Source of the DNA: Nostoc sp. DedSLP01
Lineage (GTDB): Bacteria > Cyanobacteriota > Cyanobacteriia > Cyanobacteriales > Nostocaceae
Assembly (NCBI GenBank): GCA_034530875.2
Contig: JAVRCJ020000003.1
Span: 320,001 to 384,000 of the forward strand
Length of the DNA: 64,000 nucleotides
Reading direction: 5' to 3'
Shown: positions 39,043-54,100 of the stretch, piece by piece
How the letters are laid out: every line of letters begins with the position of its first letter
Numbering within the stretch: the stretch's first letter is position 1
The notes under the pieces: generated by a model
Databases searched by the model: none
Seen by the model: the letters and a program-made list of their open reading frames with translations, nothing else
Told to the model about the DNA's origin: nothing
Position numbers and translations under genes: made by a program

Positions 39043-39447
39043 ATGATTCTTTTTATTGATGACGAAGAGAGAGGAATAGCTAGCTTTGTTGAAGAATTAA
39101 AACTTTCTAAATTTGAGACTACTTTGAAAAAAGATGTTAATTCTGCTTTAAAATATCTCGAAGATAATCATGACAAAATTCAATTAGTCATTTTAGATGT
39201 GATGATGCCAGCAGAAGAAATATTTAAAGATTGCGACACTAATGATGGATTAAGAACGGGAGTTCATTTTCATAGAAAAATTAGAAAAAGTTTTCCTAAT
39301 TTACCGATTATTATTTTTACCAATTTTTCTGATGATGAGCTTGAGCAAGAAAGCAATAAAGATCGTAAAAGCCGATTTCTTCATAAATATGATTATCTGC
39401 CTTTTGAATTTGTTGAAGAAGTTCGCAAAGCTCTAAATGAGCAATAA
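39043..39447 (+). CDS. Single-domain response regulator
   Basis: ILFIDDE, ILDVMMP, PIIIFT, conserved Lys; RBS AAGGAG. Confidence 0.9.
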   Translation: MILFIDDEERGIASFVEELKLSKFETTLKKDVNSALKYLEDNHDKIQLVILDVMMPAEEIFKDCDTNDGLRTGVHFHRKIRKSFPNLPIIIFTNFSDDELEQESNKDRKSRFLHKYDYLPFEFVEEVRKALNEQ

Positions 39448-39508
39448 TATTTGTTTTTTTCTTCCTATCAAAATAAAATTTATTTGTACTATTTGCTCGG
39501 AGATCAAG

Positions 39509-42130
39509 ATGTCAGCAGTTATCGATCAAGTTGAATCGCGTATTGAAAATGCAGATAGAGAACTGAGTAATATTGTCCAAAACAAAGAAATGAATATTCA
39601 TTTAAAAAAAGACAGATTGCAATCTTTAAATTCAGAGATCGAATCAATCCAGTTATTAATTAATGAAGTTAGTACAGGAGAAAAAGGACAAGAATTAAAA
39701 GCAAGCAAAGCTGCTGAAATCCAAAAAGTTCGTGAATTACGCAACTATCTGGAAAGAATCTGGAAAAAAACACAATTATTAAATCCTCGCGAGCCTAAAG
39801 AATTTTGGCAGGCACTATCATGGTTTTTTAGTCTAGGAGGTAGAAATGAGTTATCTTTAATACAGAAAGCGAGGAATAATTTACCATATAATGAGCCTAA
39901 ATTTCAAGATTTTATTGAAAAAGTTCAAAAAAATATTGAAACAAAACTTTTTACTTCAGAAGTTTATCAGGTCTTTTGTTCTGAAGATCGGATTAAGCAA
40001 CTTTTTCCAGAAATAGCAGTAATTGAAGCTTATAGCGCTTTTGTAATTATTTCCGTAGATCCTAACGATGAAAAAATAATTGCACAGTTAAAAAATGTCT
40101 ACCCAGTGGAAAATTTTTCAAAAGACCTTGTGGAAGACTTAAGAGAATATATGCCTTACAAAAGAGAGCAAGTTGTTAAATTTAGATTTCCTATTCGCTA
40201 TGAATGGAAGCAGCGAATAGAAAATATAGGCGCAATCATTTTAGAATCGATAGGAAATTCAGAACTTATTGTTTCTGTACCAAATGAACAAATTTTGACT
40301 AAAATTCAAAATTTTAGAGAAGTTGCTAGCGTAACCCTTTATGAGCCAACTATTAGAGTGCAAGAGGAATATTTAAAAGATTTAGGGGTAGAAGTCACTG
40401 AAGAAATGTTGGCAGAGGCAAGACTAAAAATAGCTGAAAATGTTCAAAATACTAAAATTAACAACAATTTTATTCCAGGTATTTTAATTGCTCGTTTCTT
40501 TACTGAAGAAGACCGCGATCGCGCTCTAAAAACTTTAGAGGTTGAGAAAATTGATGTCGTTGACAAACCTGATATTAATGAATTAGTTATAGATTTAATC
40601 AGTCATAGTAATCCTATTAATGCTTATGAAATTCTCAAAAGTTTACCAGGTTTAATTTCGCTAGAAGAAGAAACCATCGAAACGATTGATAATCATGTTG
40701 CTGTTCTCCTACTTGCCAATGGTGTTTCTCCCATCGACTATATTCCTGAGTTGACCGGCAAGGGAGAAATTATTGCTATTGCAGATACAGGTTTAGATAC
40801 AGGACTAAAAGAAACACTACACCTTGATTTTCAAGGAAGGGTAAGAATAATTCAAAGTTATCCTATCAGAGCTGCATATTCTAACAGAGTTAATAATCCT
40901 AATGGTGATGATGGAGCATCGGATAAATATTCAGGACATGGAACTCATGTAGCAGGAAGTGCATTAGGAAGCGGAAGAATGGCACAAAACTACGGACTTC
41001 CTCCTATTCAGGGAATGGCGCCTGAAGCAGAATTGATCTTTCAAGCAGTTGAGCAAACTCCCAAACGGAAGATAGAAGAAATACACTCATACTTGAAACG
41101 TGAACTGATACCTCCCGCCTCTGATTTGCTAGGAATTCCTAGTAATATCAAAACATTATTTGAATTTGCTTTCACGAACGGCGCACGTATTCATTCTAAT
41201 TCTTGGGGAGGATCTGAATCTGGCTATTATAATAGCCGATGTCTTCAATTAGATGAATTTGTTTGGCAACACAAAGACTTTTTGATTGTGTTCGCTGCTG
41301 GGAATACAGGTAATCAACAGGGAAGAATTACACCACCAGGAACGGCGAAAAACTGTTTAACAGTAGGAGTATTTGATGATTTTAGCAGTCGAGGCCCTTG
41401 TCAAGATGGTCGTTTGAAGCCTGATGTTCTCGCGCCAGGCGCTTTTATTTTATCCACTCGTTCCTGTCAGATTACGCATTACTCAGAAGCTCCTTATCCA
41501 CCAGCTAAAAGCGATTATATGTATATGAGTGGGACTTCTATGGCAACTCCTTTAATTGCTGGCAGCGCGGCATTAGTTCGTCAATATCTTCGTACAAAGA
41601 AGAACATTAGTAATCCGAGTGCAGCTTTACTCAAAGCAGCATTAATTCATTCAGCGGAGTATTTTCAACACTCTTATGCTCATAACTCTTCTAAAAAATG
41701 GGCACATAACGAGCAAGGATGGGGCAGAATAAACCTTAGTCGGATTATTAATCCACCTTATCACGTCGAATTTTTCGATCGCACCCAAGGTTTCTTGGAG
41801 TCTGGCGAGAAGGAGCATCAATACGAATTCGAGATTGTCGACAACTCGATTCCTTTGCGAGTAACTTTAGTTTACACCGACTATCCAGGTAAACAACCAC
41901 TAGGCCAACTTGTTAATAATCTCAACCTAGTAGTTTATAATCCTCAAGGCAAATATTATCTTGGCAATGATTTCGACGAGCTAGGCATGGTAGATAATAT
42001 TAATAATGTCGAAGGTTGCATTATCGATCCGCCCATAACAGGAAGATGGAAAATCAAAATTGTTGGAAAAACGATAATGCAACCCCCACAAGACTATGCC
42101 TTGGTGATTTCTGGTGCGATCGCACATTGA
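39509..42130 (+). CDS. S8 subtilase (Kp43-like) with long N-terminal extension
   Basis: IADTG, HGTHVAG, FAAGN, GTSMATP; C-terminal beta domain; GGAG precedes ATG 39509; no signal peptide evident. Confidence 0.92.
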   Translation: MSAVIDQVESRIENADRELSNIVQNKEMNIHLKKDRLQSLNSEIESIQLLINEVSTGEKGQELKASKAAEIQKVRELRNYLERIWKKTQLLNPREPKEFWQALSWFFSLGGRNELSLIQKARNNLPYNEPKFQDFIEKVQKNIETKLFTSEVYQVFCSEDRIKQLFPEIAVIEAYSAFVIISVDPNDEKIIAQLKNVYPVENFSKDLVEDLREYMPYKREQVVKFRFPIRYEWKQRIENIGAIILESIGNSELIVSVPNEQILTKIQNFREVASVTLYEPTIRVQEEYLKDLGVEVTEEMLAEARLKIAENVQNTKINNNFIPGILIARFFTEEDRDRALKTLEVEKIDVVDKPDINELVIDLISHSNPINAYEILKSLPGLISLEEETIETIDNHVAVLLLANGVSPIDYIPELTGKGEIIAIADTGLDTGLKETLHLDFQGRVRIIQSYPIRAAYSNRVNNPNGDDGASDKYSGHGTHVAGSALGSGRMAQNYGLPPIQGMAPEAELIFQAVEQTPKRKIEEIHSYLKRELIPPASDLLGIPSNIKTLFEFAFTNGARIHSNSWGGSESGYYNSRCLQLDEFVWQHKDFLIVFAAGNTGNQQGRITPPGTAKNCLTVGVFDDFSSRGPCQDGRLKPDVLAPGAFILSTRSCQITHYSEAPYPPAKSDYMYMSGTSMATPLIAGSAALVRQYLRTKKNISNPSAALLKAALIHSAEYFQHSYAHNSSKKWAHNEQGWGRINLSRIINPPYHVEFFDRTQGFLESGEKEHQYEFEIVDNSIPLRVTLVYTDYPGKQPLGQLVNNLNLVVYNPQGKYYLGNDFDELGMVDNINNVEGCIIDPPITGRWKIKIVGKTIMQPPQDYALVISGAIAH

Positions 42131-42329
42131 TTGGAAGCAAGTGCCATGAGAAAAGCCACTGTCTTAAAAGTCATCTCACCACACCAAAAATCTTTTTTGG
42201 CAAAGTCCCGGCAATCTAAAGCTTTTGGAAGTCCCTTAGTGTAAGTTAATATTTAATCGCTATAAAAACCCTTATCCTAAGATATATAGATTTAGGTGAT
42301 TGAAAATATTTTTAGGAGGAAACCGCACC

Positions 42330-42806
42330 ATGAACCTCTACCATAAACTTGCTCTTTTAACAGATGATGAGGCAAGAATTTGCCTTAATGGTGTTTTGAA
42401 AGGCTTGCTTGCGCTTCAACCTCAATATGAAGCTTTGTTTGCATCTGAAAATCAAATGCAAGCAGCGATCGAGCAGGTTATTTCAGAACTTGGTCAGGCT
42501 CCAAGTTCTGCTATTGATACTATTAAAAAGCAAAATACATCAAAAGCTATTCGGCTGATTCTAATTGAAATTGCTGAAAATCCAGAGATAAGCCCCAGGT
42601 TAGAGGCGTGGTTTTCAAGTGCAAGACCAAAGTTGCTAGAACCTGTAACCACTGCTTTAGTTCTCGCTGGCATTATTTTAATTCTTTCAACGGATATCAC
42701 TATTGAGTACAAAAATCAGGATGGGAAAAAGAACTTCAGAGTAAAGGTAGAGAAGAAAGCAACACCTAGCAAATTTTTGGAGAAATTTTTTAGTCTTTTT
42801 TCGTGA
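42330..42806 (+). CDS. Small hypothetical protein with one hydrophobic helix and C-terminal beta-hairpin
   Basis: AGGAGG RBS before ATG 42330; EPVTTALVLAGIILILS then ITIEYK..DG..FRVKVEK. Confidence 0.75.
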   Translation: MNLYHKLALLTDDEARICLNGVLKGLLALQPQYEALFASENQMQAAIEQVISELGQAPSSAIDTIKKQNTSKAIRLILIEIAENPEISPRLEAWFSSARPKLLEPVTTALVLAGIILILSTDITIEYKNQDGKKNFRVKVEKKATPSKFLEKFFSLFS

Positions 42807-42933
42807 GCCTACTTTTAATAGATACTAAACAATAGCTTCAATATATATTAAATATCGGTAATCTTAGGAAATAAAAATTGCCATACGAATAGCAATTACC
42901 TAATTCAATACCTTAAGTATAAATAGGGTTTAT

Positions 42934-44868
42934 ATGATATATGAACGACCCAGTTTTCAACTTTTTATTTTGGGACAACTGTTAAACCATACGCAACCCG
43001 AAACCTTAACAGTGCTTGCCGAATTCAAAAACAGTAGAGCAGTAGAGCGAGTGCAACTGATTCAAAGAGAAGTTGAGGAACTAACTCAAAATATTGCCAA
43101 TATTAGGGGTTTTATTGAAGCTGGATTTCCTGTTATTGATGAATTTGCTCTTGAACAATTTGGTGGTAGACTGTTCGATCTGATTATAAAAAACAATGTA
43201 AGAAGGTTATTTGATAGAGCAACAGGTTCAACTCAAGAATTGCTGCCTTTGCAGATTTTTGTAGAGGATTACACGATTGCAGGATGGCCTTGGGAATACT
43301 TATATGACTCCAACTCCAGTGTATTTATGTGCCAAGAGTTTCATCCTATTTCGCGTGGCATTTTTACTCTTTTTCCAGCAGGAAACCAGATTATCCAAAA
43401 CAATATAGTTCGGATTTTATTACTTATCGGAGTTTTAGATGACGATCCAAATACAACTCCAACAGATGAAATTAAATGGATTCAAGAGGTATTTAAAACA
43501 CAGCTTCAAACAAGAAAAATTGAATTGAAAATAATGCAGGCAGTTAATCCAAAAGCTTTAGAGGAGGAGCTTCAGAAACATCACTATGATATTTTGCATT
43601 TTTTCGGTCATGCAGGGTTAGATGCTGGACGAAAAGAAGGATATCTCAGATTTGACCAGCCTCAGGGTCAACCGTTCCATTTTCCTGCAAACACTTTTGC
43701 TCAGTTGCTAGCACAGCAGAAGATTCGATTGGTATTTCTTAATGCTTGCGAAACTGCCAAAGCATCTCAGAATGAAAATCCTGCCAGAAGTTCTGTTGCT
43801 GCTGCTTTACTGGGACGAGGTATTCCTGCTGTTATTTCAACTCAGTTTTCTATACCTGATACCAGCGCTCATTTCCTTTCATCTGTCATTTATAGTGCAT
43901 TAGTAAATGGAAAAACTCTTGGAGAAGCTTTACGTGATGGTCGCCGAGCAATGTCCTATGACGCAAACTCTAAGTTCTTTGACTGGGGTATTCCAGTACT
44001 TTATTGCTCCGACCCAAATCTGAAAATTTTCCCCAATTTTCAAACTCAACCTGAACCCGACAGAGCAGTTACTTTATTTGATAATGCTAATGCTTCAAAA
44101 AACTTTATTGACGATCGAGAAGAGTTCCCGGAATCAATAATGAGCATTGAACGTTTTAAAGATTTAAATGCACTCTTGCCAGAGAAAAGAATTAGCTTAA
44201 ACCAAAAGGTTCCAAGAATAAGGATTGCAATTGTGGACATTGATGCTAAAGTCGGCTTCTTGCCAGAGTTGCTTGAATTTGCTAATCAAGCACAAAAATA
44301 CTATTGGTTTAAGGTCGCTTATTTACCGATTCCATCAAATGCAGTCAGAAATAACATCAAGGGTGAATCAGTTACTCCCCAGTTATATTTACCTCTATTA
44401 GAGAAATCGCTGAATAATGCACCTCAGGGGCTAAACGCAGACCTGGTTTGCTGTTTAACTAAAAATTTAGTTGCTGGAGAAGTCAATGGAAAGCCTTATT
44501 ATAACTACTTTGCCTCTGCTTTAAATAGCAACCCAAAAATTTCAGTAGTTTCAACTTTTGGAGTGCGAGGATATGCACGACAGGCAAATGTTGATTTTGC
44601 GAAAGCAGTGCTTGATATTTGCCTCTCAATTCTGCTTGTCACTGAAAGACGTTGGTCATTAGAATATCATGAGGAAACCTGTGGATGTTTGTTTGACCTG
44701 TGCCGTAATCGAGATGACATTGTTGTGGCATTGAAGCATAAAAAGTTCGATCATAAAACCTGTCGAAACAGGATTAGAGATCCAGAGCAACTTGATGCGA
44801 TAGATGCTCTGATTGATTTGGAAGTAGATCTAGAGAGGGAATCAACTTCTGCCTTAGAAATGGAGTAA
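42934..44868 (+). CDS. CHAT (caspase-like) protease with Cys/His-rich C-terminal domain
   Basis: WPWEYL, ILHFFGHAG (His), VFLNACET (Cys), IPAVISTQF, DWGIPVLY. Confidence 0.9.
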   Translation: MIYERPSFQLFILGQLLNHTQPETLTVLAEFKNSRAVERVQLIQREVEELTQNIANIRGFIEAGFPVIDEFALEQFGGRLFDLIIKNNVRRLFDRATGSTQELLPLQIFVEDYTIAGWPWEYLYDSNSSVFMCQEFHPISRGIFTLFPAGNQIIQNNIVRILLLIGVLDDDPNTTPTDEIKWIQEVFKTQLQTRKIELKIMQAVNPKALEEELQKHHYDILHFFGHAGLDAGRKEGYLRFDQPQGQPFHFPANTFAQLLAQQKIRLVFLNACETAKASQNENPARSSVAAALLGRGIPAVISTQFSIPDTSAHFLSSVIYSALVNGKTLGEALRDGRRAMSYDANSKFFDWGIPVLYCSDPNLKIFPNFQTQPEPDRAVTLFDNANASKNFIDDREEFPESIMSIERFKDLNALLPEKRISLNQKVPRIRIAIVDIDAKVGFLPELLEFANQAQKYYWFKVAYLPIPSNAVRNNIKGESVTPQLYLPLLEKSLNNAPQGLNADLVCCLTKNLVAGEVNGKPYYNYFASALNSNPKISVVSTFGVRGYARQANVDFAKAVLDICLSILLVTERRWSLEYHEETCGCLFDLCRNRDDIVVALKHKKFDHKTCRNRIRDPEQLDAIDALIDLEVDLERESTSALEME

Positions 44869-45292: not shown

Positions 45293-45940
45293 TCACTGAT
45301 GAATCGCACCATCAGGCATGATTGCCCCAGCTAGATTAGCACCGATTAGTTTAACTAGAAGCCTCTCGCCAGAGCGAATCCGCGCGCCGGTTAAGTCAGC
45401 ACCGCGCAAATCGGCTCCGCTGAGATCCGCGCCAATTAGATTAGCAGCACGTAAATTTGCTTCCCTGAGATCGGCTAAAAGCAGATTTGCGCGAAATAAA
45501 TTAGCTTCAGATAAATTGGCTCCTCTGAGGTTAACTTTGTGCATAAAAGTATCGCTGAGATTAGCACCACTCAAGTTGGCATAACTGAGATTTCTGCCAG
45601 ATAAATCTTTATTGCTTAAATTTGCCCGACTATAGTCTTTACCACTCAAGTCTGGATTGTGTTTTGAGGGTGGGTGACTTATGTGAGATGGTGGTTCGTG
45701 GTGAGAGGGCTGTGACTTGTGCGTAGTGTGATGTTTGGTTTTTATAGAGCGCAATTTTTCACGAGCTTCATTAATCGCTTTGAGCTTGTCCTGTGCCTTC
45801 TGCTGTAAGCGAAGATTTTCCTTCGGAATGCGATCGGGATGCCAAACAAAAACCAGATCTTTATAAGCCTGGTTCACTTCCTCAAGCGTTGCACCAGGCT
45901 CTATTTCCAAAATCCTATAGTACCGCTCCAGATCGCTCAT
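45293..45940 (-). CDS. DnaJ J-domain plus pentapeptide-repeat protein
   Basis: YYRILEI...WHPD J-domain followed by A(N/D)LSG repeats. Confidence 0.92.
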   Translation of the reverse strand: MSDLERYYRILEIEPGATLEEVNQAYKDLVFVWHPDRIPKENLRLQQKAQDKLKAINEAREKLRSIKTKHHTTHKSQPSHHEPPSHISHPPSKHNPDLSGKDYSRANLSNKDLSGRNLSYANLSGANLSDTFMHKVNLRGANLSEANLFRANLLLADLREANLRAANLIGADLSGADLRGADLTGARIRSGERLLVKLIGANLAGAIMPDGAIHQ

Positions 45941-46608: not shown

Positions 46609-47324
46609 AATGAAACTAGTGATTCTAAAAAGTTGATCTGGTGAATGAAAAGTGGGTAAGAATGATACATCGCAATCCTAAATAAAATACAAACAAATCT
46701 GTTTCCTGTTTTTTGTTCCCTCCCACCACAAGTAGTTTGCAAATCAAATAGGATTGGTATACGGCATTTCTCAATTCTTTGGAATCAGCTTTCGTAAGGT
46801 AAAACACGACTCAGGAGAATTAGATGTTTAGATTTTGGAATCCTGGCTCTTTGAATTTTTGAAACACTAAGCTGCCACTGTAAGTTTTCTCTAATTTCTG
46901 GGTATTTTCTGTATTTATTCATCTGAATTTTTAAATTTTCAACATTAATTTTTGATTATTTACATTGATAAGGTTATACAAATATAATAATTTTTTATTA
47001 AAAGAGCCTTTCTGCTTCTAGACAAATAAATAACAAGCACTTCACTACACAAAATTCTGACAAATTGAGGAAAACAAAGCTTATAATCTAAGCATTTTAA
47101 ATTTGGAGAGAAGTTTGAAACTCGTTTCAGGTAAAGCGCACCGATTTCTACTCCAGACGCACAAACGACGACTTGCCGTAGGCATTAAAACAGAGCGTAA
47201 TGAGTGAATTTTGCGTAATCCTTTACACAAAGCAAGCTACGCATAGCATTTCCTAGAGAAATGCTATAGTTTTGATTCCCCCAATTGTACTGAGTTTATC
47301 GCTTTTTTAGTTTTCTTGGGGGTC

Positions 47325-47353
47325 TTGACAGCACTAGCTCTTCTTGTTAATGT
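47325..47353 (+). promoter_or_regulatory. Sigma70-type promoter of the aroF leader
   Basis: TTGACA, 17 bp spacer, TAATGT with extended TG. Confidence 0.7.
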
Positions 47354-47410
47354 TACTATATGTATGTTTATCTAGTTTAAGTTAAATTTTTCAGCAACAG
47401 AGCTTCGCAA

Positions 47411-47467
47411 ATGTTAAACACAAACTCCTACTTTTATTTTTGGTACAGGGCGGTTCACCGGGAGTGA
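47411..47467 (+). CDS. Attenuator leader peptide 1 (MLNTNSYFYFWYRAVHRE)
   Basis: Six consecutive aromatic codons TAC TTT TAT TTT TGG TAC at 47429-47446; the 3' end of the ORF covers the antiterminator arm. Confidence 0.85.
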   Translation: MLNTNSYFYFWYRAVHRE

Positions 47468-47531
47468 ATAAAGTTTCCATACGGAAACTGCCCGGTGAAC
47501 CGCAGAGCGAACTCTGCGGTTTTGTTTTTTT
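47450..47531 (+). terminator. Attenuator 1: antiterminator 47450-47462/47491-47503 versus terminator 47498-47521 plus U-tract
   Basis: GCGGTTCACCGGG/CCCGGTGAACCGC 13-bp stem shares AACCGC with AACCGCAGAG-CGAA-CTCTGCGGTT followed by TTGTTTTTTT. Confidence 0.85.
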
Positions 47532-47546
47532 AAGGAGAATTTCATT

Positions 47547-47612
47547 GTGACGACTTATTTCGCTAGTTGGTTTTACGGCTTTTACTTTTGGCCCAGAGTC
47601 AGTTCCGGGTAA
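47547..47612 (+). CDS. Attenuator leader peptide 2 (MTTYFASWFYGFYFWPRVSSG)
   Basis: AAGGAG RBS at 47532-47537, GTG start, 9 of 21 codons aromatic. Confidence 0.85.
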   Translation: MTTYFASWFYGFYFWPRVSSG

Positions 47613-47673
47613 ATTGCGTTATGCCGATAAACCACAACGCGCCCGGAACTTCTCAAAGGTTCCGGGTTTTTTT
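47601..47673 (+). terminator. Attenuator 2: antiterminator 47601-47609/47642-47650 versus terminator 47642-47666 plus T7
   Basis: AGTTCCGGG pairs with CCCGGAACT; the same CCCGGAAC alternatively pairs with GTTCCGGG ahead of TTTTTTT. Confidence 0.85.
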
Positions 47674-47778
47674 ATTAGTCATTGGTCATTGGTCATTAGT
47701 CATTAGTGTTCCCCTGCCTCCTCTGCTCAATGCCCAATCCCCAATCCCCAATACTTAATTTTTAAGGAGAATTAAACC

Positions 47779-48651
47779 ATGATTAACGCTAAACTTGCTG
47801 CACAATCCCATCCCAACCATCAGACAATCGTTAAAGTTTCAGAAAAAGTTGCTTTCGGCGGTGAAGAACTGGTAATTATCGGCGGCCCCTGTACTGTTGA
47901 AAGCTGGGAACAAATGGAGACAGTGGCGCAGAAACTATCTACGACATCGGTACAAGCTTTGCGTGGCGGTGTGTACAAACCTCGCACATCTCCCTACGCG
48001 TTCCAGGGTATGGGTGAGTCAGGATTGGAAATTTTGGCGAAAGTGCGATCGCTTTACAATATGCCAGTCGTCACCGAGGTGATGTCAATTTCACAAATTG
48101 AAGCAGTAGCCACCCATGCTGATATGCTTCAAGTTGGTAGCCGCAATATGCAAAACTTCGATTTGCTCAAAGCTTTAGGACAAGCCGGTAAACCGATACT
48201 GCTAAAACGCGGTTTAGCAGCGACTATTGAAGAATTCGTGATGGCAGCAGAATATATTCTCAGTCACGGCAATCCTGATGTGGTGTTGTGCGAAAGGGGT
48301 ATTCGTAGCTTCGATGATTACACGCGCAACGTCCTAGATTTAGGCGCAGTAGCAGCACTCAAACAAATAACTCACCTGCCTGTGATTGTAGATCCCTCCC
48401 ATGCCGTAGGTAAACGGGAATTAGTAGCACCTGTAGCTAGAGCTGCGATCGCTTGCGGTGCAGATGGGTTAATAATTGAGTGTCACCCACAACCAGAAAA
48501 ATCTGTTTCTGATGCCCGTCAAGCACTTTCTTTAGAAGATATGGTGGATTTAGTTGATAGTCTAAAGCTGATTGCAACAGCCGTCGGGCGCAGTATATTA
48601 CAAACAAAAGGGGCAGGTTATAAACCTACCCCTTTTGTTTATGCTGCTTGA
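47779..48651 (+). CDS. aroF: DAHP synthase, type I-beta, lacking the N-terminal regulatory domain
   Basis: GGPCTVES, RGGVYKPRTSPYAFQG, QVGSRNMQNF, LKRG, CERGIR, DPSH; only 290 aa. Confidence 0.95.
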   Translation: MINAKLAAQSHPNHQTIVKVSEKVAFGGEELVIIGGPCTVESWEQMETVAQKLSTTSVQALRGGVYKPRTSPYAFQGMGESGLEILAKVRSLYNMPVVTEVMSISQIEAVATHADMLQVGSRNMQNFDLLKALGQAGKPILLKRGLAATIEEFVMAAEYILSHGNPDVVLCERGIRSFDDYTRNVLDLGAVAALKQITHLPVIVDPSHAVGKRELVAPVARAAIACGADGLIIECHPQPEKSVSDARQALSLEDMVDLVDSLKLIATAVGRSILQTKGAGYKPTPFVYAA

Positions 48652-49265
48652 ACAAAATATTGAACTTAAACCCTACTCATAATTTTTCATTTGGGTAGGG
48701 TTAGCAAAATTAATTCTATAAAAGAAAGTAAGATTAATTATTATTTGTATAGCTTGTGACAGAATAAAATACTGCTCCACTCGACTATTTTTTGTCTATA
48801 AAAAGTAGTCAGTTCTCAGGAGTGGTGAATTAGTGAACACACCACCCATGAAGGCATAGTGTTTTAAAAAAAGTTTCAACCCCTGTCTCGTCCACAAAGG
48901 ACGATTTTTTGAGCAGTATTTATTCTTCTGATTTCTGAATTCTGACTCCTGAGTTCTTCTTTATAAAACTATACTTTTACAGGTTTTCACACAAATTTCT
49001 CTCTAGAGAGCTAAGCAAAACTCAAACTTATTTAGTATGCTAATGTTTAGCTTGACTAACATTACGTTGAGCTACTAAAAATAGATTACAACAATTTGGC
49101 ACAAAATGTGACGTTTGGCAACCAACTTGACTTTTGGGCGATGGCTTATGTCTTTGTGACAAATTGCTCAAGCTAGGCGATCGCTAATGCAGTCGCTTGG
49201 TTGTCACCCAAACCGAAACCACTGCTCGATTGCTAGGTGTTTGTGCTTCTCCTATGATTTTTAAT

Positions 49266-50636
49266 ATGCGTTGTTTAACCTCAGTTCAGACGACAAAGCC
49301 TTTATCTATATCTCAAAAGATTCCTCGTCTTTATAGCTTAAGTTCCAGAGGAAGGTTGTGGCTGCTGGTGTTGGGTTTGTCCTACTTATGTGCTGCTTGT
49401 AATGCTTCCGAAGCTCAATCAAGCGGCCAACAAGCAGGTAAAAAGCGAGCTGTGCCAGTGGTGATTGCCACTGCAACTCAAAAAACCATTCCAATACAGC
49501 TATCGGCTACGGGAACAGTAGAAGCATATTCCACTGTATCTGTCAAGTCTCAAGTTGGCGGGCAACTGATTGGAGTTTATTTTCAGCAAGGACAGAACGT
49601 CAAGAAAGGAGACTTGTTATTTAAAATTGATTCCCGTTCCTTAGAAGCAGCGCTGATGCAAGCTAATGCTGCCAAAGCCAAAGATTTAGCGCAGGTGAAA
49701 CAGGCACAGGCAAATGTAGTAAAAGCGATCGCTCAAGTTAACCAAGCAAAAGCGAATGTCACCAAGGATATCGCCCAAGCTACAAATGCAGACGTGCAGG
49801 CGAAAAGATACAACAGCTTACTCAAGGAAGGGGCAATCAGCAAAGAACAAGCAGATCAATTCCAGACGACAGCAGCAGCTCAACGAGCAACAGTTAACGC
49901 AGACCAAAATGGAGTAGCAGACGCTCAAGCAGCCGTGGCAGCAGCCGAAGCAGACGTGCAAAACGCCAAAGCAGCAGTAGTAGCAGATGAAGCTGCGATC
50001 GCCAATGCAAAAATCCAGCTTTCCTACAGTTCCATCTACTCGCCGATTACCGGGCGTACAGGTAGCCTGAAGTTCACTCAAGGCAACTTAATAGAAGCCA
50101 ACGCCACCGATCCGTTAATTACCATCAGTCAAATCCGCCCGATTTACGTTAACTTTTCCATTCCACAACGACTCTTGCCAGATTTGAAGAAGTACAGCAC
50201 TAACGGCAAGTTAGAAGTCACTGCTATACCTCCCAAAGATAAAGGGCGTCCGATAACGGGAGAACTCACCTTCGTTGATAGCGGACTCAATACCCAAACA
50301 GGCACAATTCAACTTAAAGCCACCTTTGCCAACACAGAGGATCGCCTAGTTCCAGGGCAGTTTGTCAATGTAGTCCTCAAGCTTACCGAAGAACCAAATG
50401 TGATAACCGTGCCTTCCCAAGCCGTCCAAAGCGGACAACAAGGGCAATTTGTATTTGTAGTCAAACCTGACAAAACAGCCCAAATGCGCCCGGTTACCGT
50501 AGGCGACACCATTGGCAACGAAACAGCCATTACACAAGGGTTGCAAGCAGGCGAACAAATCGTTATCGACGGGCAATTTAACTTAGTACCTGGTGCCGCA
50601 GTGCAGGTGAAACAGGGAGTGGGGAGTAGGGAGTAG
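49266..50636 (+). CDS. RND efflux membrane fusion protein (MdtA-like); start uncertain
   Basis: Lipobox-like CAAC, lipoyl-like half motifs, coiled coil, TGTIQLKATF, LVPGQFV. Confidence 0.9.
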   Translation: MRCLTSVQTTKPLSISQKIPRLYSLSSRGRLWLLVLGLSYLCAACNASEAQSSGQQAGKKRAVPVVIATATQKTIPIQLSATGTVEAYSTVSVKSQVGGQLIGVYFQQGQNVKKGDLLFKIDSRSLEAALMQANAAKAKDLAQVKQAQANVVKAIAQVNQAKANVTKDIAQATNADVQAKRYNSLLKEGAISKEQADQFQTTAAAQRATVNADQNGVADAQAAVAAAEADVQNAKAAVVADEAAIANAKIQLSYSSIYSPITGRTGSLKFTQGNLIEANATDPLITISQIRPIYVNFSIPQRLLPDLKKYSTNGKLEVTAIPPKDKGRPITGELTFVDSGLNTQTGTIQLKATFANTEDRLVPGQFVNVVLKLTEEPNVITVPSQAVQSGQQGQFVFVVKPDKTAQMRPVTVGDTIGNETAITQGLQAGEQIVIDGQFNLVPGAAVQVKQGVGSRE

Positions 50637-50761
50637 GGAGTGCTGAGTTAAGAGTTATTTTCATTGTCTACCACACTCCCTTATCTCCCCACACTCCCTC
50701 ATCTCCCCACACTCCCTCATCTCCCCACCTCCCCACTCCCTACTCCCCACTCCCCACTAAG

Positions 50762-53700
50762 ATGAACATTTCCCAGCTATTCATCCGCCGTCCAATCATG
50801 ACAACCTTAGTGATGGTTGGCGTCTTAATATTTGGGCTGATGAGTTACCAACAATTACCCGTTAGTGACTTGCCCAATGTGGATTATCCGACACTCCAGG
50901 TAACGGCTAGTCTGCCTGGAGCCAATCCAGAAACGATGGCGTCTTCGGTTGCCACTCCTTTAGAGCAGCAGTTTTCTAGCATTGCGGGATTGAGTTCCAT
51001 GAACTCTACCAGCTCTTTGGGTAGCACGCAAATTACGCTGCAATTTGACCTCAATCGGGATATTGACGGGGCTGCACAGGATGTACAGTCTGCTATTTCT
51101 AAAGCAGCTAGGCAGTTGCCGACTAATATGCCTAATCCTCCTTCTTTCCGCAAGGTGAATCCGGCAGATCAACCAGTTCTCTACATCTCTTTAAATTCCT
51201 CGATTTTGCCGCTTTCAACTGTAGATAAGTACGCGGAAACGCTTTTGGCACAACGTCTGTCGATGGTGGATGGGGTGGCGCAAGTGCAGGTTTACGGTTC
51301 GCAAAAGTACGCGGTACGGATTCAGCTCGACCCGGAATCATTGAGCGCTAAGGGTATAGGAATCGATGAAGTGGCAACTGCGATCGCTAACGGGAATGTT
51401 AACCTCCCAACCGGGACGCTTTACGGACAGCAACAGAATTATACAATTCAAGCAAACGGTCAACTCAACGATGCCGCCAGTTATCGCTCTCTAGCTGTAA
51501 CTTATCAAAACGGTGCGCCCGTGCAGCTAGGGGAACTCGGCCAAGTGCTGGACAGCGTGGAAAATGATAAGATTGCTAGCTGGTATTTTCCGACAAAGCA
51601 GGGAGTAGGCGAGATGGGGAGTAGGGGAGATGGGGAGGTGGGGAATAACTCCTCACTCAATACTCCCAATACCAAAATCCAAAATTCTGGCGTGCGGGCG
51701 ATCGTTTTAGCAATTCAACGCCAACCGGGAACTAATACCGTGGAAGTGGTGGATGCAATTAAGAAATTGCTACCCACCTTCCAAAAACAGATTCCCGCGG
51801 CTGTGAACATGAATATTCTCTACGATCGCTCCCAATCAATTCGCGAATCAGTAGATGATGTACAATTCACGCTCTTACTCACCATTGCTCTGGTAGTACT
51901 GGTAATCTTTCTCTTCCTTCGCAATATCTCGGCTACAGTCATTCCCAGTTTGGCAGTACCTTTATCAATCGTCGCCACCTTTGCAGTAATGCTGCTGCTG
52001 GGCTATTCCCTCGATAACCTATCGCTGATGGCATTAACTTTATCAGTGGGTTTCGTGGTGGATGATGCCGTAGTCATGCTAGAAAACATTGTCCGCCACA
52101 TGGAAATGGGTGAGAGCCGTTTGGAAGCAGCGCTGAATGGTTCTAGGGAAATTGGTTTCACAATTTTATCTATGACTATTTCCTTGGTAGCAGTATTTAT
52201 CCCCGTGCTGTTCATGGAAGGTATTCTGGGGCGACTGTTCCGTGAATTTGCCGTTACCATTAGCGTTGCCATCTTGGTTTCTGGCGCCATTTCTCTGAGT
52301 TTAACGCCAATGCTTTGTTCCAGATTCTTGCGTCCGCCTCATCATCAGGAAGCAGGGGGAGCAGAGGAGCAGAGGAGCAGAGGAGCAGAGGAAGCAGAGG
52401 GAGCAGGGGAGGCAGGGGATGCAGAGGAGGAAGGGGGAGAGATGCCCTATGCCCAAATCAAAAATCGAAAATCCAAAATCCAAAATTTCCAGACTCGTCT
52501 GTACGATATTTCGGAAAGCTTCTTTAATTTGTTGTTGCGGGGATACGATTGGAGTTTGAAAATATCGCTGAAGTATCACCGGACGACGATGGTGATTTCG
52601 GGAGCAATTCTTTTAGCGACGGTTTATCTATTTATAGTTGTGCCTAAGGGATTTGTGCCCAATGCTGATGTTGGACAAATTACTGCAACAACTCAGGCAT
52701 CAGAGGATATCTCCTTTGATGAAATGGTAAAACATCAACAGGCTGTAGCTGCGATCGCTTATCGGGATCCTAATGTTGATTCGATTAACTCCAGTGTCGG
52801 AGCTGGCGGGCCAAATGCTTCTGCTAACAGCGGACGGCTGTTAATCGAACTCAAGCCCCGCCACGAGCGCCATCTTAGTGCGGATGAAATCGTGGAGAAG
52901 CTTCGACCGAAGTTGTCGAGTGTGCCTGGAATCAAAGTCTTCTTACAGAATCCCCCTGCGATAAATATTGGCGGACAACAGACAAAAGCACAGTATCAAT
53001 TTAGTCTCCAAAGTCCCGATATTCAAGAGCTTTATCAGTACGCACCGCTTCTAGAAAACCAACTCCGCAATCTCTCAGAATTGCAGGATGTCAACAGCGA
53101 CCTACAAATCAAAAATCCCCAAGTCAAAGTAGACATTAACCGCGACCAAGCTTCAGCTCTCGGTTTGACTGCCAATCAAATCGAAACTGCCCTCAGTAAT
53201 GCTTATGGTACTCGTCAAGTCTCTACCATCTACGCCTCTGATAGCCAGTATCAAGTAATTATGGGCGTGGAACCAAAATATCAACAAAATTCCAATGCCC
53301 TAGATTTGCTCTCAATTCGCGCTCCCAACGGGCAACTCGTACCTCTGAATGCTGTAGCAACTTTGACTAAGGATGTAGGGCCGCTAACCATTAACCACAA
53401 AGGACAGCTAGCTTCTGTTACCTTTTCTTTTAACCTCAAGCCAGGAATATCTCTCAGTAGCGTCACTGGCAAAATTGAGCAACTTGCGCGTCAAACATTA
53501 CCAGCTACTATTAGTACAGGCTTTCAGGGTTCAGCCCAGGCGTTTCAGTCTTCAATTCAGGGTTTAGGACTGCTGCTGCTGGTTGCCATCTTAGTGATTT
53601 ATATCGTGTTGGGGATTCTCTACGAGAACTTCATTCACCCCTTGACCATCCTTTCTAGCTTACCCTCAGCTGGATTTGGGGCGCTGCTGACTTTGCTGCT

Positions 53701-54100
53701 GTTTCAAGTTGACTTGAATATTTACGCCTTCGTGGGCATTATCTTACTGGTTGGCATTGTCAAGAAAAATGGGATTATGATGGTTGACTTTGCGATCGCA
53801 GCTCGTCAAGAAGGTAAAACTCCTTATGATGCCATTTATCAAGCCTGCTTGGTGAGATTTCGACCAATCATGATGACCACAATGGCAGCATTGATGGGCA
53901 CATTACCCATCGCCCTTGGCTTTGGAGCCGGAGCAGATACACGCCGTCCCCTTGGTTTAGCAGTAGTTGGCGGGTTATTGTTCTCGCAATTCCTAACGCT
54001 TTATTTAACACCAGTTTTTTACACTTATATGGAGTCTTGGCAAACAAAGTTGCAAAAACACAACTGGCAAAAACATTCAGATTCAACCTTGGAAACTTAG
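50762..54100 (+). CDS. RND efflux permease (MdtB/MdtC-like)
   Basis: FIRRPIMTTL, GFVVDDAVVMLEN, GIVKKNGIMMVDFA, RFRPIMMTT. Confidence 0.95.
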   Translation: MNISQLFIRRPIMTTLVMVGVLIFGLMSYQQLPVSDLPNVDYPTLQVTASLPGANPETMASSVATPLEQQFSSIAGLSSMNSTSSLGSTQITLQFDLNRDIDGAAQDVQSAISKAARQLPTNMPNPPSFRKVNPADQPVLYISLNSSILPLSTVDKYAETLLAQRLSMVDGVAQVQVYGSQKYAVRIQLDPESLSAKGIGIDEVATAIANGNVNLPTGTLYGQQQNYTIQANGQLNDAASYRSLAVTYQNGAPVQLGELGQVLDSVENDKIASWYFPTKQGVGEMGSRGDGEVGNNSSLNTPNTKIQNSGVRAIVLAIQRQPGTNTVEVVDAIKKLLPTFQKQIPAAVNMNILYDRSQSIRESVDDVQFTLLLTIALVVLVIFLFLRNISATVIPSLAVPLSIVATFAVMLLLGYSLDNLSLMALTLSVGFVVDDAVVMLENIVRHMEMGESRLEAALNGSREIGFTILSMTISLVAVFIPVLFMEGILGRLFREFAVTISVAILVSGAISLSLTPMLCSRFLRPPHHQEAGGAEEQRSRGAEEAEGAGEAGDAEEEGGEMPYAQIKNRKSKIQNFQTRLYDISESFFNLLLRGYDWSLKISLKYHRTTMVISGAILLATVYLFIVVPKGFVPNADVGQITATTQASEDISFDEMVKHQQAVAAIAYRDPNVDSINSSVGAGGPNASANSGRLLIELKPRHERHLSADEIVEKLRPKLSSVPGIKVFLQNPPAINIGGQQTKAQYQFSLQSPDIQELYQYAPLLENQLRNLSELQDVNSDLQIKNPQVKVDINRDQASALGLTANQIETALSNAYGTRQVSTIYASDSQYQVIMGVEPKYQQNSNALDLLSIRAPNGQLVPLNAVATLTKDVGPLTINHKGQLASVTFSFNLKPGISLSSVTGKIEQLARQTLPATISTGFQGSAQAFQSSIQGLGLLLLVAILVIYIVLGILYENFIHPLTILSSLPSAGFGALLTLLLFQVDLNIYAFVGIILLVGIVKKNGIMMVDFAIAARQEGKTPYDAIYQACLVRFRPIMMTTMAALMGTLPIALGFGAGADTRRPLGLAVVGGLLFSQFLTLYLTPVFYTYMESWQTKLQKHNWQKHSDSTLET

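Follow-up and report, generated by a model that had tools for sequence, protein, structure and literature searches.

A predicted twin leader-peptide attenuator for aromatic amino acids upstream of an extra DAHP synthase gene in Nostoc

Two very short ORFs rich in Tyr, Phe and Trp codons lie one after the other between a promoter and a DAHP synthase gene of Nostoc sp. DedSLP01, within the 64-kb stretch of DNA that was analysed (the window). What do these ORFs do, and how is the gene behind them controlled? We consider it highly probable, at roughly nine chances in ten, that they belong to a twin ribosome-mediated attenuator, with its two units in series, which senses aromatic amino acids and governs an additional DAHP synthase in which the feedback domain is missing. 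To judge from its sequence, the element very probably works like a classical leader-peptide attenuator, yet its layout is not the four-segment one of trpL.

The leader and the gene that follows it

The features of the locus are collected in Table 1. The promoter (TTGACA-17-TAATGT), the two micro-ORFs and both antiterminator/terminator pairs of the preliminary description were all recovered in place. The stems of 13 and 9 bp that it had drawn from the ORF ends, overlapping terminators with a U-tract, were present as judged by inverted-repeat and terminator calls. Antiterminator and terminator share 7 nt in unit 1 and 9 nt in unit 2, so that the two helices of each unit are mutually exclusive. 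Folding, which had been suggested as a check, gave z = -3.5 for the 401-nt leader, and 0/100 shuffles equalled it. The promoter falls below the pass mark of the consensus scanner, with 3/6 matches in the -10 box, and its call rests on conservation: a promoter-like motif lies upstream of leader 1 in 45/49 non-redundant homologs, whereas shuffles gave 2.8 on average. A 10-bp palindrome at 47243-47267, lying ~60 nt before the promoter, may represent a terminator or a binding site for a protein.

The control codons of leader ORF 1 are Tyr7-Phe8-Tyr9-Phe10-Trp11; Tyr12 is probably too late for sensing. Those of leader ORF 2 are Tyr4-Phe5, Trp8-Phe9-Tyr10 and Phe12-Tyr13-Phe14-Trp15. Leader ORF 1 has no Shine-Dalgarno site in DedSLP01 or in any of the homologs (0/49), and that of leader ORF 2 is found in only 17/49 homologs. 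When unit 1 was aligned with unit 2 the score was 59, the best of 300 shuffles reaching 41, and this likeness fits an old duplication. The spacer behind terminator 2 carries heptamer repeats, which look like the short tandem repeats known from heterocystous cyanobacteria, and the distance from terminator to gene ranges from 20 to 600 nt among homologs.

Table 1. Features of the twin leader and its gene in the window
Feature	Position	Strand	Description
Promoter	47325..47353	+	-35 TTGACA (47325-47330), 17 nt, extended -10 TG-n-TAATGT (47348-47353)
Leader ORF 1	47411..47467	+	ATG start, 18 aa; 3 Tyr, 2 Phe, 1 Trp
Antiterminator 1, 5' arm	47450..47462	+	At the end of leader ORF 1; 13-bp perfect inverted repeat
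Short hairpin, arm 1 with stop-codon region	47452..47470	+	Candidate pause hairpin; -4.9 kcal/mol
Hairpin nested in antiterminator 1	47472..47489	+	From folding
Antiterminator 1, 3' arm	47491..47503	+	47497-47503 common to terminator 1
Intrinsic terminator 1 and U-tract	47497..47531	+	Stem 47497-47522
Shine-Dalgarno site of leader ORF 2	47532..47537	+	AAGGAG, 9 nt before the GTG start
Leader ORF 2	47547..47612	+	GTG start, 21 aa; 3 Tyr, 4 Phe, 2 Trp
Antiterminator 2, 5' arm	47601..47609	+	At the end of leader ORF 2; 9-bp perfect inverted repeat with 47642-47650
Intrinsic terminator 2 and U-tract	47641..47673	+	Stem 47641-47667; 47642-47650 doubles as the 3' arm of antiterminator 2
Spacer with heptamer repeats	47674..47755	+	Variable, outside the switch; ATTGGTC-like and CCCCAAT-like repeats
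Type I-beta DAHP synthase	47779..48651	+	290 aa; catalytic barrel without N-terminal ferredoxin-like feedback domain

The arrangement goes beyond what chance would give. When 138,744 short ORFs of DedSLP01 were scanned for a terminator with a competing helix behind a run of control codons (run thresholds were applied to 18 groups of amino acids), three candidates passed, with thresholds that had been set after the finding was seen; two of them were the leader ORFs described here, and the third was Leu-rich and had no long ORF downstream. No second match to a model of unit 1 was found in this genome. The Rfam leader families (Trp, Phe, His, Thr, Leu and others) gave no gathering-score match in the region of the window or in six homologous loci. 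The locus shows four features of a classical leader-peptide attenuator, namely clustered control codons, an intrinsic terminator, an exclusive antiterminator and suitable spacing, the last with an assumed overhang of 6 nt.

The gene downstream is the DAHP synthase that had been expected. Its product scores 365 bits with the type I-beta family model TIGR01361 (cut-off 268), KDO8P synthase models stay below their cut-off, and the catalytic motifs of type I-beta DAHP synthases are present in the 290-aa protein. The closest solved structures are 1vs1, 3pg8, 1rzm and 1zco. The model NF006421 matched only from profile position 69, and a domain search found neither PF18152 nor a chorismate mutase domain at the N-terminus of the enzyme. 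The DedSLP01 genome holds four matches to the DAHP synthase family. PF18152 is present in two of the paralogs (L082 and L083); the third, which lacks it, looks like a type I-alpha enzyme. Since two paralogs carry PF18152 and the copy of the window does not, the leader sits on an extra isozyme without the usual feedback domain. The preliminary description, which had treated the enzyme as the first step of the pathway, was thus right about its identity and is corrected as to its standing among the paralogs. Type I-beta enzymes that have no regulatory domain are insensitive to feedback, and the enzyme of the window would be expected to behave likewise.

A strong hairpin (48598-48641; -26.8 kcal/mol for 48591-48660) lies within the last codons of the gene, and is a possible 3' end or stability element. 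The neighbours are a DnaJ-pentapeptide repeat gene (45293-45940) and genes for an RND efflux adaptor and transporter (49197-54100); no link between these and the attenuator was seen. Further upstream, ORFs of 897, 168 and 644 aa follow one another on the + strand (39437-44868), the first of which we presume to be a subtilisin-like protease and the last to be CHAT-like.

Conservation of the codons, the helices and the twin arrangement

If the two ORFs are read for their codons, and the RNA for its pairing, both should be kept in relatives. Codons, spacing and pairing were analyzed in 49 non-redundant homologs per unit. As the preliminary description had anticipated, the runs of Tyr, Phe and Trp are retained in the alignment of both leaders: all three residues are present in leader 1 of 49/49 homologs and in leader 2 of 48/49. 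An in-frame ATG or GTG precedes the aromatic run in 49/49 and 49/50 homologs. Control codons interchange between Phe and Tyr, with U or A about equally frequent at the second position and U or C at the third; the third position is T or C in 193/196 control codons of unit 1 and 240/245 of unit 2, and A or G in 3/196 and 5/245. The last Trp codon lies 9 nt from the core of the arm in 47/49 homologs (unit 1) and 12 nt in 44/49 (unit 2).

Covariation of the stems, which had also been anticipated, was seen as both-side changes in all four helices. Antiterminator 1 was paired in 89.5% of cells with 29 both-side changes (7.7 in shuffles), terminator 1 in 99.8% with 5 (0.5 in shuffles), antiterminator 2 in 92.6% with 14 (3.6 in shuffles) and terminator 2 in 92.4% with 24 (7.1 in shuffles). 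For each helix 0/500 shuffles were as high for cells changed, a count that is no probability, since the homologs are kin and not independent. In controls with slid arms the pairing dropped to 12-60%. Over the arms, two short hairpins are retained (paired in 95% and 91%), with covariation not beyond that of shuffles, and may be pause hairpins. A long protector helix of the window's best fold (47568-47579/47623-47634) was discarded: it is paired in 60.7%, equal to shuffles, and shows no covariation. These comparisons indicate that both codons and pairing are under selection.

The range of the element proved far wider than the Nostocales, which had been proposed as the frame for judging its conservation. 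Units were called by a detector that asks for an aromatic run with a start codon, and for a terminator with a helix that competes with it. A first set comprised the best 80 of 568 related loci, 78 of which had upstream DNA; two units were found in 74/78 and one in 4/78, and in the latter the second leader was visible on reading the sequence. A second set came from 401 genomes drawn evenly across the phylum. Besides DedSLP01, 64 of them hold the enzyme clade (E at most 1e-120, the next best being 5e-95), and all were fetched. Two units were found in 58/64 loci and one in 6/64. Among these six, leader 2 is present in L085 and had failed the structure filter, L099 and L106 keep unit 2 only, L105 and L107 keep unit 1 only, and in L138 (G147) unit 1 and the first part of leader 2 have given way to foreign DNA, presumably the end of an insertion sequence, with terminator 2 intact. 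No units (0/17) were found upstream of control DAHP synthases with an N-terminal extension.

The model of unit 1 matched 53/151 genomes of the class, with one match each, and the DAHP synthase gene of this clade was downstream in 29/29 of the matches examined. A pattern scan of metagenomes listed 120 loci; in 75 of the 80 that were read the gene was downstream. L216 and L275 are chance matches, and L206, L217 and L244 end prematurely. In a third class, that of G004, a search run without a positive control gave 0/47 genomes (23 of them at least 90% complete). Five weak matches from the class of G003 (E 0.002-0.01) were not retained, and the two that were read (L339 and L342) show no leader.

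At E of 1e-8 or below the model of unit 1 also matched 20/30 genomes of f60, a family from a different class of the phylum. We take this class to be the Vampirovibrionia (Obscuribacterales), and no photosynthetic reaction centre gene was found in the five f60 genomes tested. Of the strong f60 loci that were read, 24/25 precede the same DAHP synthase clade, with 71% identity for one. Five f60 genomes of two genera have two leader-bearing paralogs each, in which the switch is kept and the sensed codons are changed. In G617, G623 and G629 one leader pair carries runs of Tyr, whereas the second has Phe and Trp and no more than a single Tyr. The enzyme behind the Phe/Trp leaders has a C-terminal extension of 125-155 aa, in which a chorismate mutase domain was found in the ortholog tested. 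In G611 and G608 a Phe-rich leader pair stands beside a Tyr/Trp or mixed pair. Both leaders of a pair change their codons together while the helices stay, which matches the prediction for a codon-reading switch; with two genera, these cases represent at most two independent codon-change events. G617 and G629 also hold a third paralog of the enzyme clade (L362 and L366), upstream of which the filter found no aromatic leader. A second twin leader with Tyr-rich ORFs (L344/L369, G573:C20:1-3009, minus strand) precedes no DAHP synthase; it stands before DIT1_PvcA, TauD-family and FAD-binding genes, a cluster predicted to consume Tyr.

A quick tree, computed with 59 of the 87 rows of a first tree, separated the enzyme clade from the domain-bearing enzymes with 100% support and placed the f60 rows in one group (88%); a single clade for the photosynthetic rows was not rejected (p-AU 0.92). 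The first tree was set aside, being unfinished and pulled by long branches. On this phylogeny common descent and one old transfer would both be compatible with the origin of the f60 element. We advance only tentatively, and with rather more doubt than belief, the wider proposal that the twin switch and its enzyme predate the split between photosynthetic cyanobacteria and a non-photosynthetic sister class, that RNA sensing replaced allostery of the protein in this isozyme, and that the switch is a multiplicative gate for three amino acids which, once the gene had been duplicated, was retuned by codon swaps alone. E. coli has three feedback-specific DAHP synthase isozymes; if the proposal is true, the Tyr-specific and Phe/Trp-specific gates would be their RNA counterpart, and transcription and translation in cyanobacteria would be coupled tightly enough for ribosome-timed termination.

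A model of the switch and its alternatives

We propose that the switch would work as follows. Transcription would begin near 47360, and a ribosome would translate leader 1. When Phe-, Tyr- and Trp-tRNA are plentiful, the ribosome would reach the stop codon and cover the 5' arm of antiterminator 1, so that terminator 1 folds and a leader RNA of ~170 nt is released. A ribosome dwelling on the aromatic codons would leave this arm free to pair with its 3' partner before the terminator's own 3' arm has been transcribed, and the polymerase would read on. Leader 2 would repeat the same test, so that the gene is transcribed only if both are passed (AND logic) and read-through approximates the product of two probabilities. 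Shortage of any one aromatic amino acid would then increase the flow into the shikimate pathway, on top of what the housekeeping isozyme with its feedback domain supplies. Leader translation, the amino acid response, kinetic control and the AND logic are what we infer from the sequences, and the two units may also sharpen the response, as had been supposed.

The model was examined on nascent RNA, the ribosome being assumed to leave the RNA free from 6 nt beyond the codon in its A site. When it was placed on the last Trp codon, the antiterminator formed in 49/49 homologs in each unit; when it was placed four codons further on or at the stop, the antiterminator formed in 0/49 and the terminator in 49/49. 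With an overhang of 9 nt in place of 6 nt, unit 1 loses its protection when the ribosome stalls at Trp11, and Trp may therefore be read mainly by unit 2. Sensing of Tyr, Phe and Trp by each unit, as first claimed, is supported by the conserved codons, and is borderline for Trp in unit 1, where this codon lies so close to the core of the arm. At equilibrium with the arm free, the terminator still wins in 27/49 homologs for unit 1 and 32/49 for unit 2; the antiterminator must therefore be kinetically trapped by forming first.

The layout of E. coli trpL and pheL has a 1:2 pause/protector helix, and the geometry of these leaders had been claimed for the Nostoc locus. The part of the claim that stands is the pairing of leader ORFs with competing helices. 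No conserved long helix that includes the control codons, of the trpL 1:2 type, was found in the homologs, and untranslated unit 1 folds by default as the antiterminator (48/49), untranslated unit 2 doing so less often (28/49).

This default behaviour speaks for the least improbable alternative, namely that only one sensor works, or that unit 2 mainly lowers basal read-through, the tandem then being redundancy and not a multiplicative gate. The single units kept in 4/64 sampled genomes (L099 and L106; L105 and L107), together with an RNA on record for terminator 1 alone (see below), would agree with it. In two classes, however, the control codons, their spacing and the covariation of the competing helices are retained in both units, and in the specialised paralogs both leaders change their codons jointly. 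We regard redundancy as unlikely, and prefer two working sensors in series.

The choice of codons raises a second alternative. The control Phe codons (47429-47443 and 47556-47591) are ~96% UUU in homologs, against 75% in the long ORFs of the genome; for the Phe at leader position 2, by contrast, UUC predominates. The bias may reflect either slower decoding or a signal for the polymerase to pause, and it makes the runs more U-rich than coding by itself would require. The RNA switch could then be real and its trigger a different one: nascent-peptide stalling with a free aromatic ligand, the general rate of translation, or an RNA-binding protein on the U-rich stretch. The lack of a Shine-Dalgarno site before leader 1 points the same way, as does the twin leader before the predicted Tyr-consuming cluster (L344/L369), for which a starvation-on switch offers no simple explanation. 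Against this, variation confined to U/A at second and U/C at third positions is the pattern of codons and not of a binding motif, in-frame start codons precede nearly every run, and codon identity tracks paralog identity. It is very unlikely, in our judgement, that the trigger is other than a shortage of charged tRNA.

Transcripts of a relative are consistent with termination in unit 1. A table for Nostoc PCC 7120 (supplement of PMC4734099) has a row with a mapped start site upstream of leader 1, the place at which a start was to be expected, and a Northern-validated 150-nt RNA that ends at terminator 1. In the close relative L024 the base that matches this start lies 7 nt after the orthologous -10 box, which places the predicted start in the DedSLP01 window near 47360. 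The RNA appears in the supplement of PMC10287535 as pNC_3692672f, followed by a unit for aroF3 that has no start site. It has the same leader, arm and terminator sequence as unit 1 and lies upstream of aroF3, and is hence the orthologous terminated transcript; in the rows of both supplements it is catalogued as a non-coding RNA, with no ORF and no link to aroF3, and the string "attenuat" is absent from the main texts of PMC4734099 and PMC10287535. In the latter's table the aroF3 unit begins 164 nt after the short RNA, so that an internal promoter is possible, and no unit ending at terminator 2 is listed. Of the 3' ends predicted at the two U-tracts, the first is thus on record, and the table of PMC10287535 has none for the second.

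One RNA contig of a relative spans leader and gene, which does not show a single transcript. The RNA runs consulted were assembled contigs of relatives, from which starts, ends and levels are not readable, and 3/4 runs resemble DNA-level cover. In nitrogen experiments with PCC 7120 the reads at the start site went from 285 to 1,402 at 8 h (PMC4734099), and aroF3 changed by log2 -0.78 and -1.05 (PMC10287535); these values, from two different experiments, agree with more termination and are not counted as evidence.

Although the cataloguing of pNC_3692672f as an sRNA with the gene as a separate unit, and the good conservation of the leader peptides, would suit a stand-alone sRNA or functional small aromatic peptides ended by the terminators, with the gene under its own promoter, we consider this highly improbable, because the helices competing with each terminator covary, the residues conserved at the C-terminus are those encoded by the RNA arm, natural variants tolerate an early or a missing stop (in L098 and L153 leader 1 ends two codons past the Trp+1 codon region, and in L077, L109 and L144 leader 2 lacks a stop and runs into the terminator), the element occurs once per genome and adjoins the DAHP synthase gene, paralogs exchange Tyr for Phe/Trp codons, and the listed gene unit of PCC 7120 has no assigned start site.

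Relation to known attenuators

In the freely accessible literature searched, we found no description of ribosome-metered aromatic control in cyanobacteria. PMC4833913 reports no reliable evidence of attenuation in cyanobacteria, PMC2965389 makes no mention of this phylum, and none of its members is listed in the attenuator table of PMC1173090. The main text of an RNA structure screen of 202 genomes (PMC12873609) contains neither "attenuat" nor "aroF"; its supplement may list the leader. Nor did we find described a layout of two related attenuators in series, with their own terminators and three amino acids each.

Nostoc PCC 7120 is a ready test strain, in which the terminated RNA is already on record under the label of an sRNA, and one reporter would make the coupling of transcription and translation in cyanobacteria directly testable. 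Natural variants of the Tyr-only and Phe/Trp kinds illustrate how a sensor of this sort would be retuned. For strain engineering, a DAHP synthase without feedback domain that is held by two terminators would offer a handle on aromatic flux.

The solved enzymes 1vs1 and 1zco likewise consist of the catalytic barrel only; the cyanobacterial clade differs in being tied to an attenuator. Attenuation of E. coli trpL-trpE and pheL-pheA is treated in PMC11802643. These leaders share with the Nostoc locus a short leader ORF, control codons and an antiterminator overlapping an intrinsic terminator, and differ in sensing one amino acid with one unit before branch-specific enzymes. Two translated short ORFs in one leader also govern read-through in the mgtCBR operon of Salmonella, whose tandem attenuators mgtM and mgtP are called "a singular example" in PMC3641672; their signals are ATP and proline, with additive effect, and the same source contrasts mgtCBR with a leader that has two intrinsic terminators. 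The Nostoc leader differs from mgtCBR in that its two units are related, have an intrinsic terminator each and carry codons for the same three amino acids. According to the descriptions in PMC11802643 and PMC4046766, the nearest known case is aroR-aroF of Corynebacterium glutamicum (Neshat et al. 2014), where a leader peptide with Phe and Tyr codons likewise precedes a DAHP synthase and stalling raises transcription; this single unit has a Phe-Tyr-Phe run and is reported to respond to Phe and not to Tyr. Compared by description only, the Nostoc leader differs from it in having two serial units, each with Phe, Tyr and Trp codons, and in belonging to another phylum.
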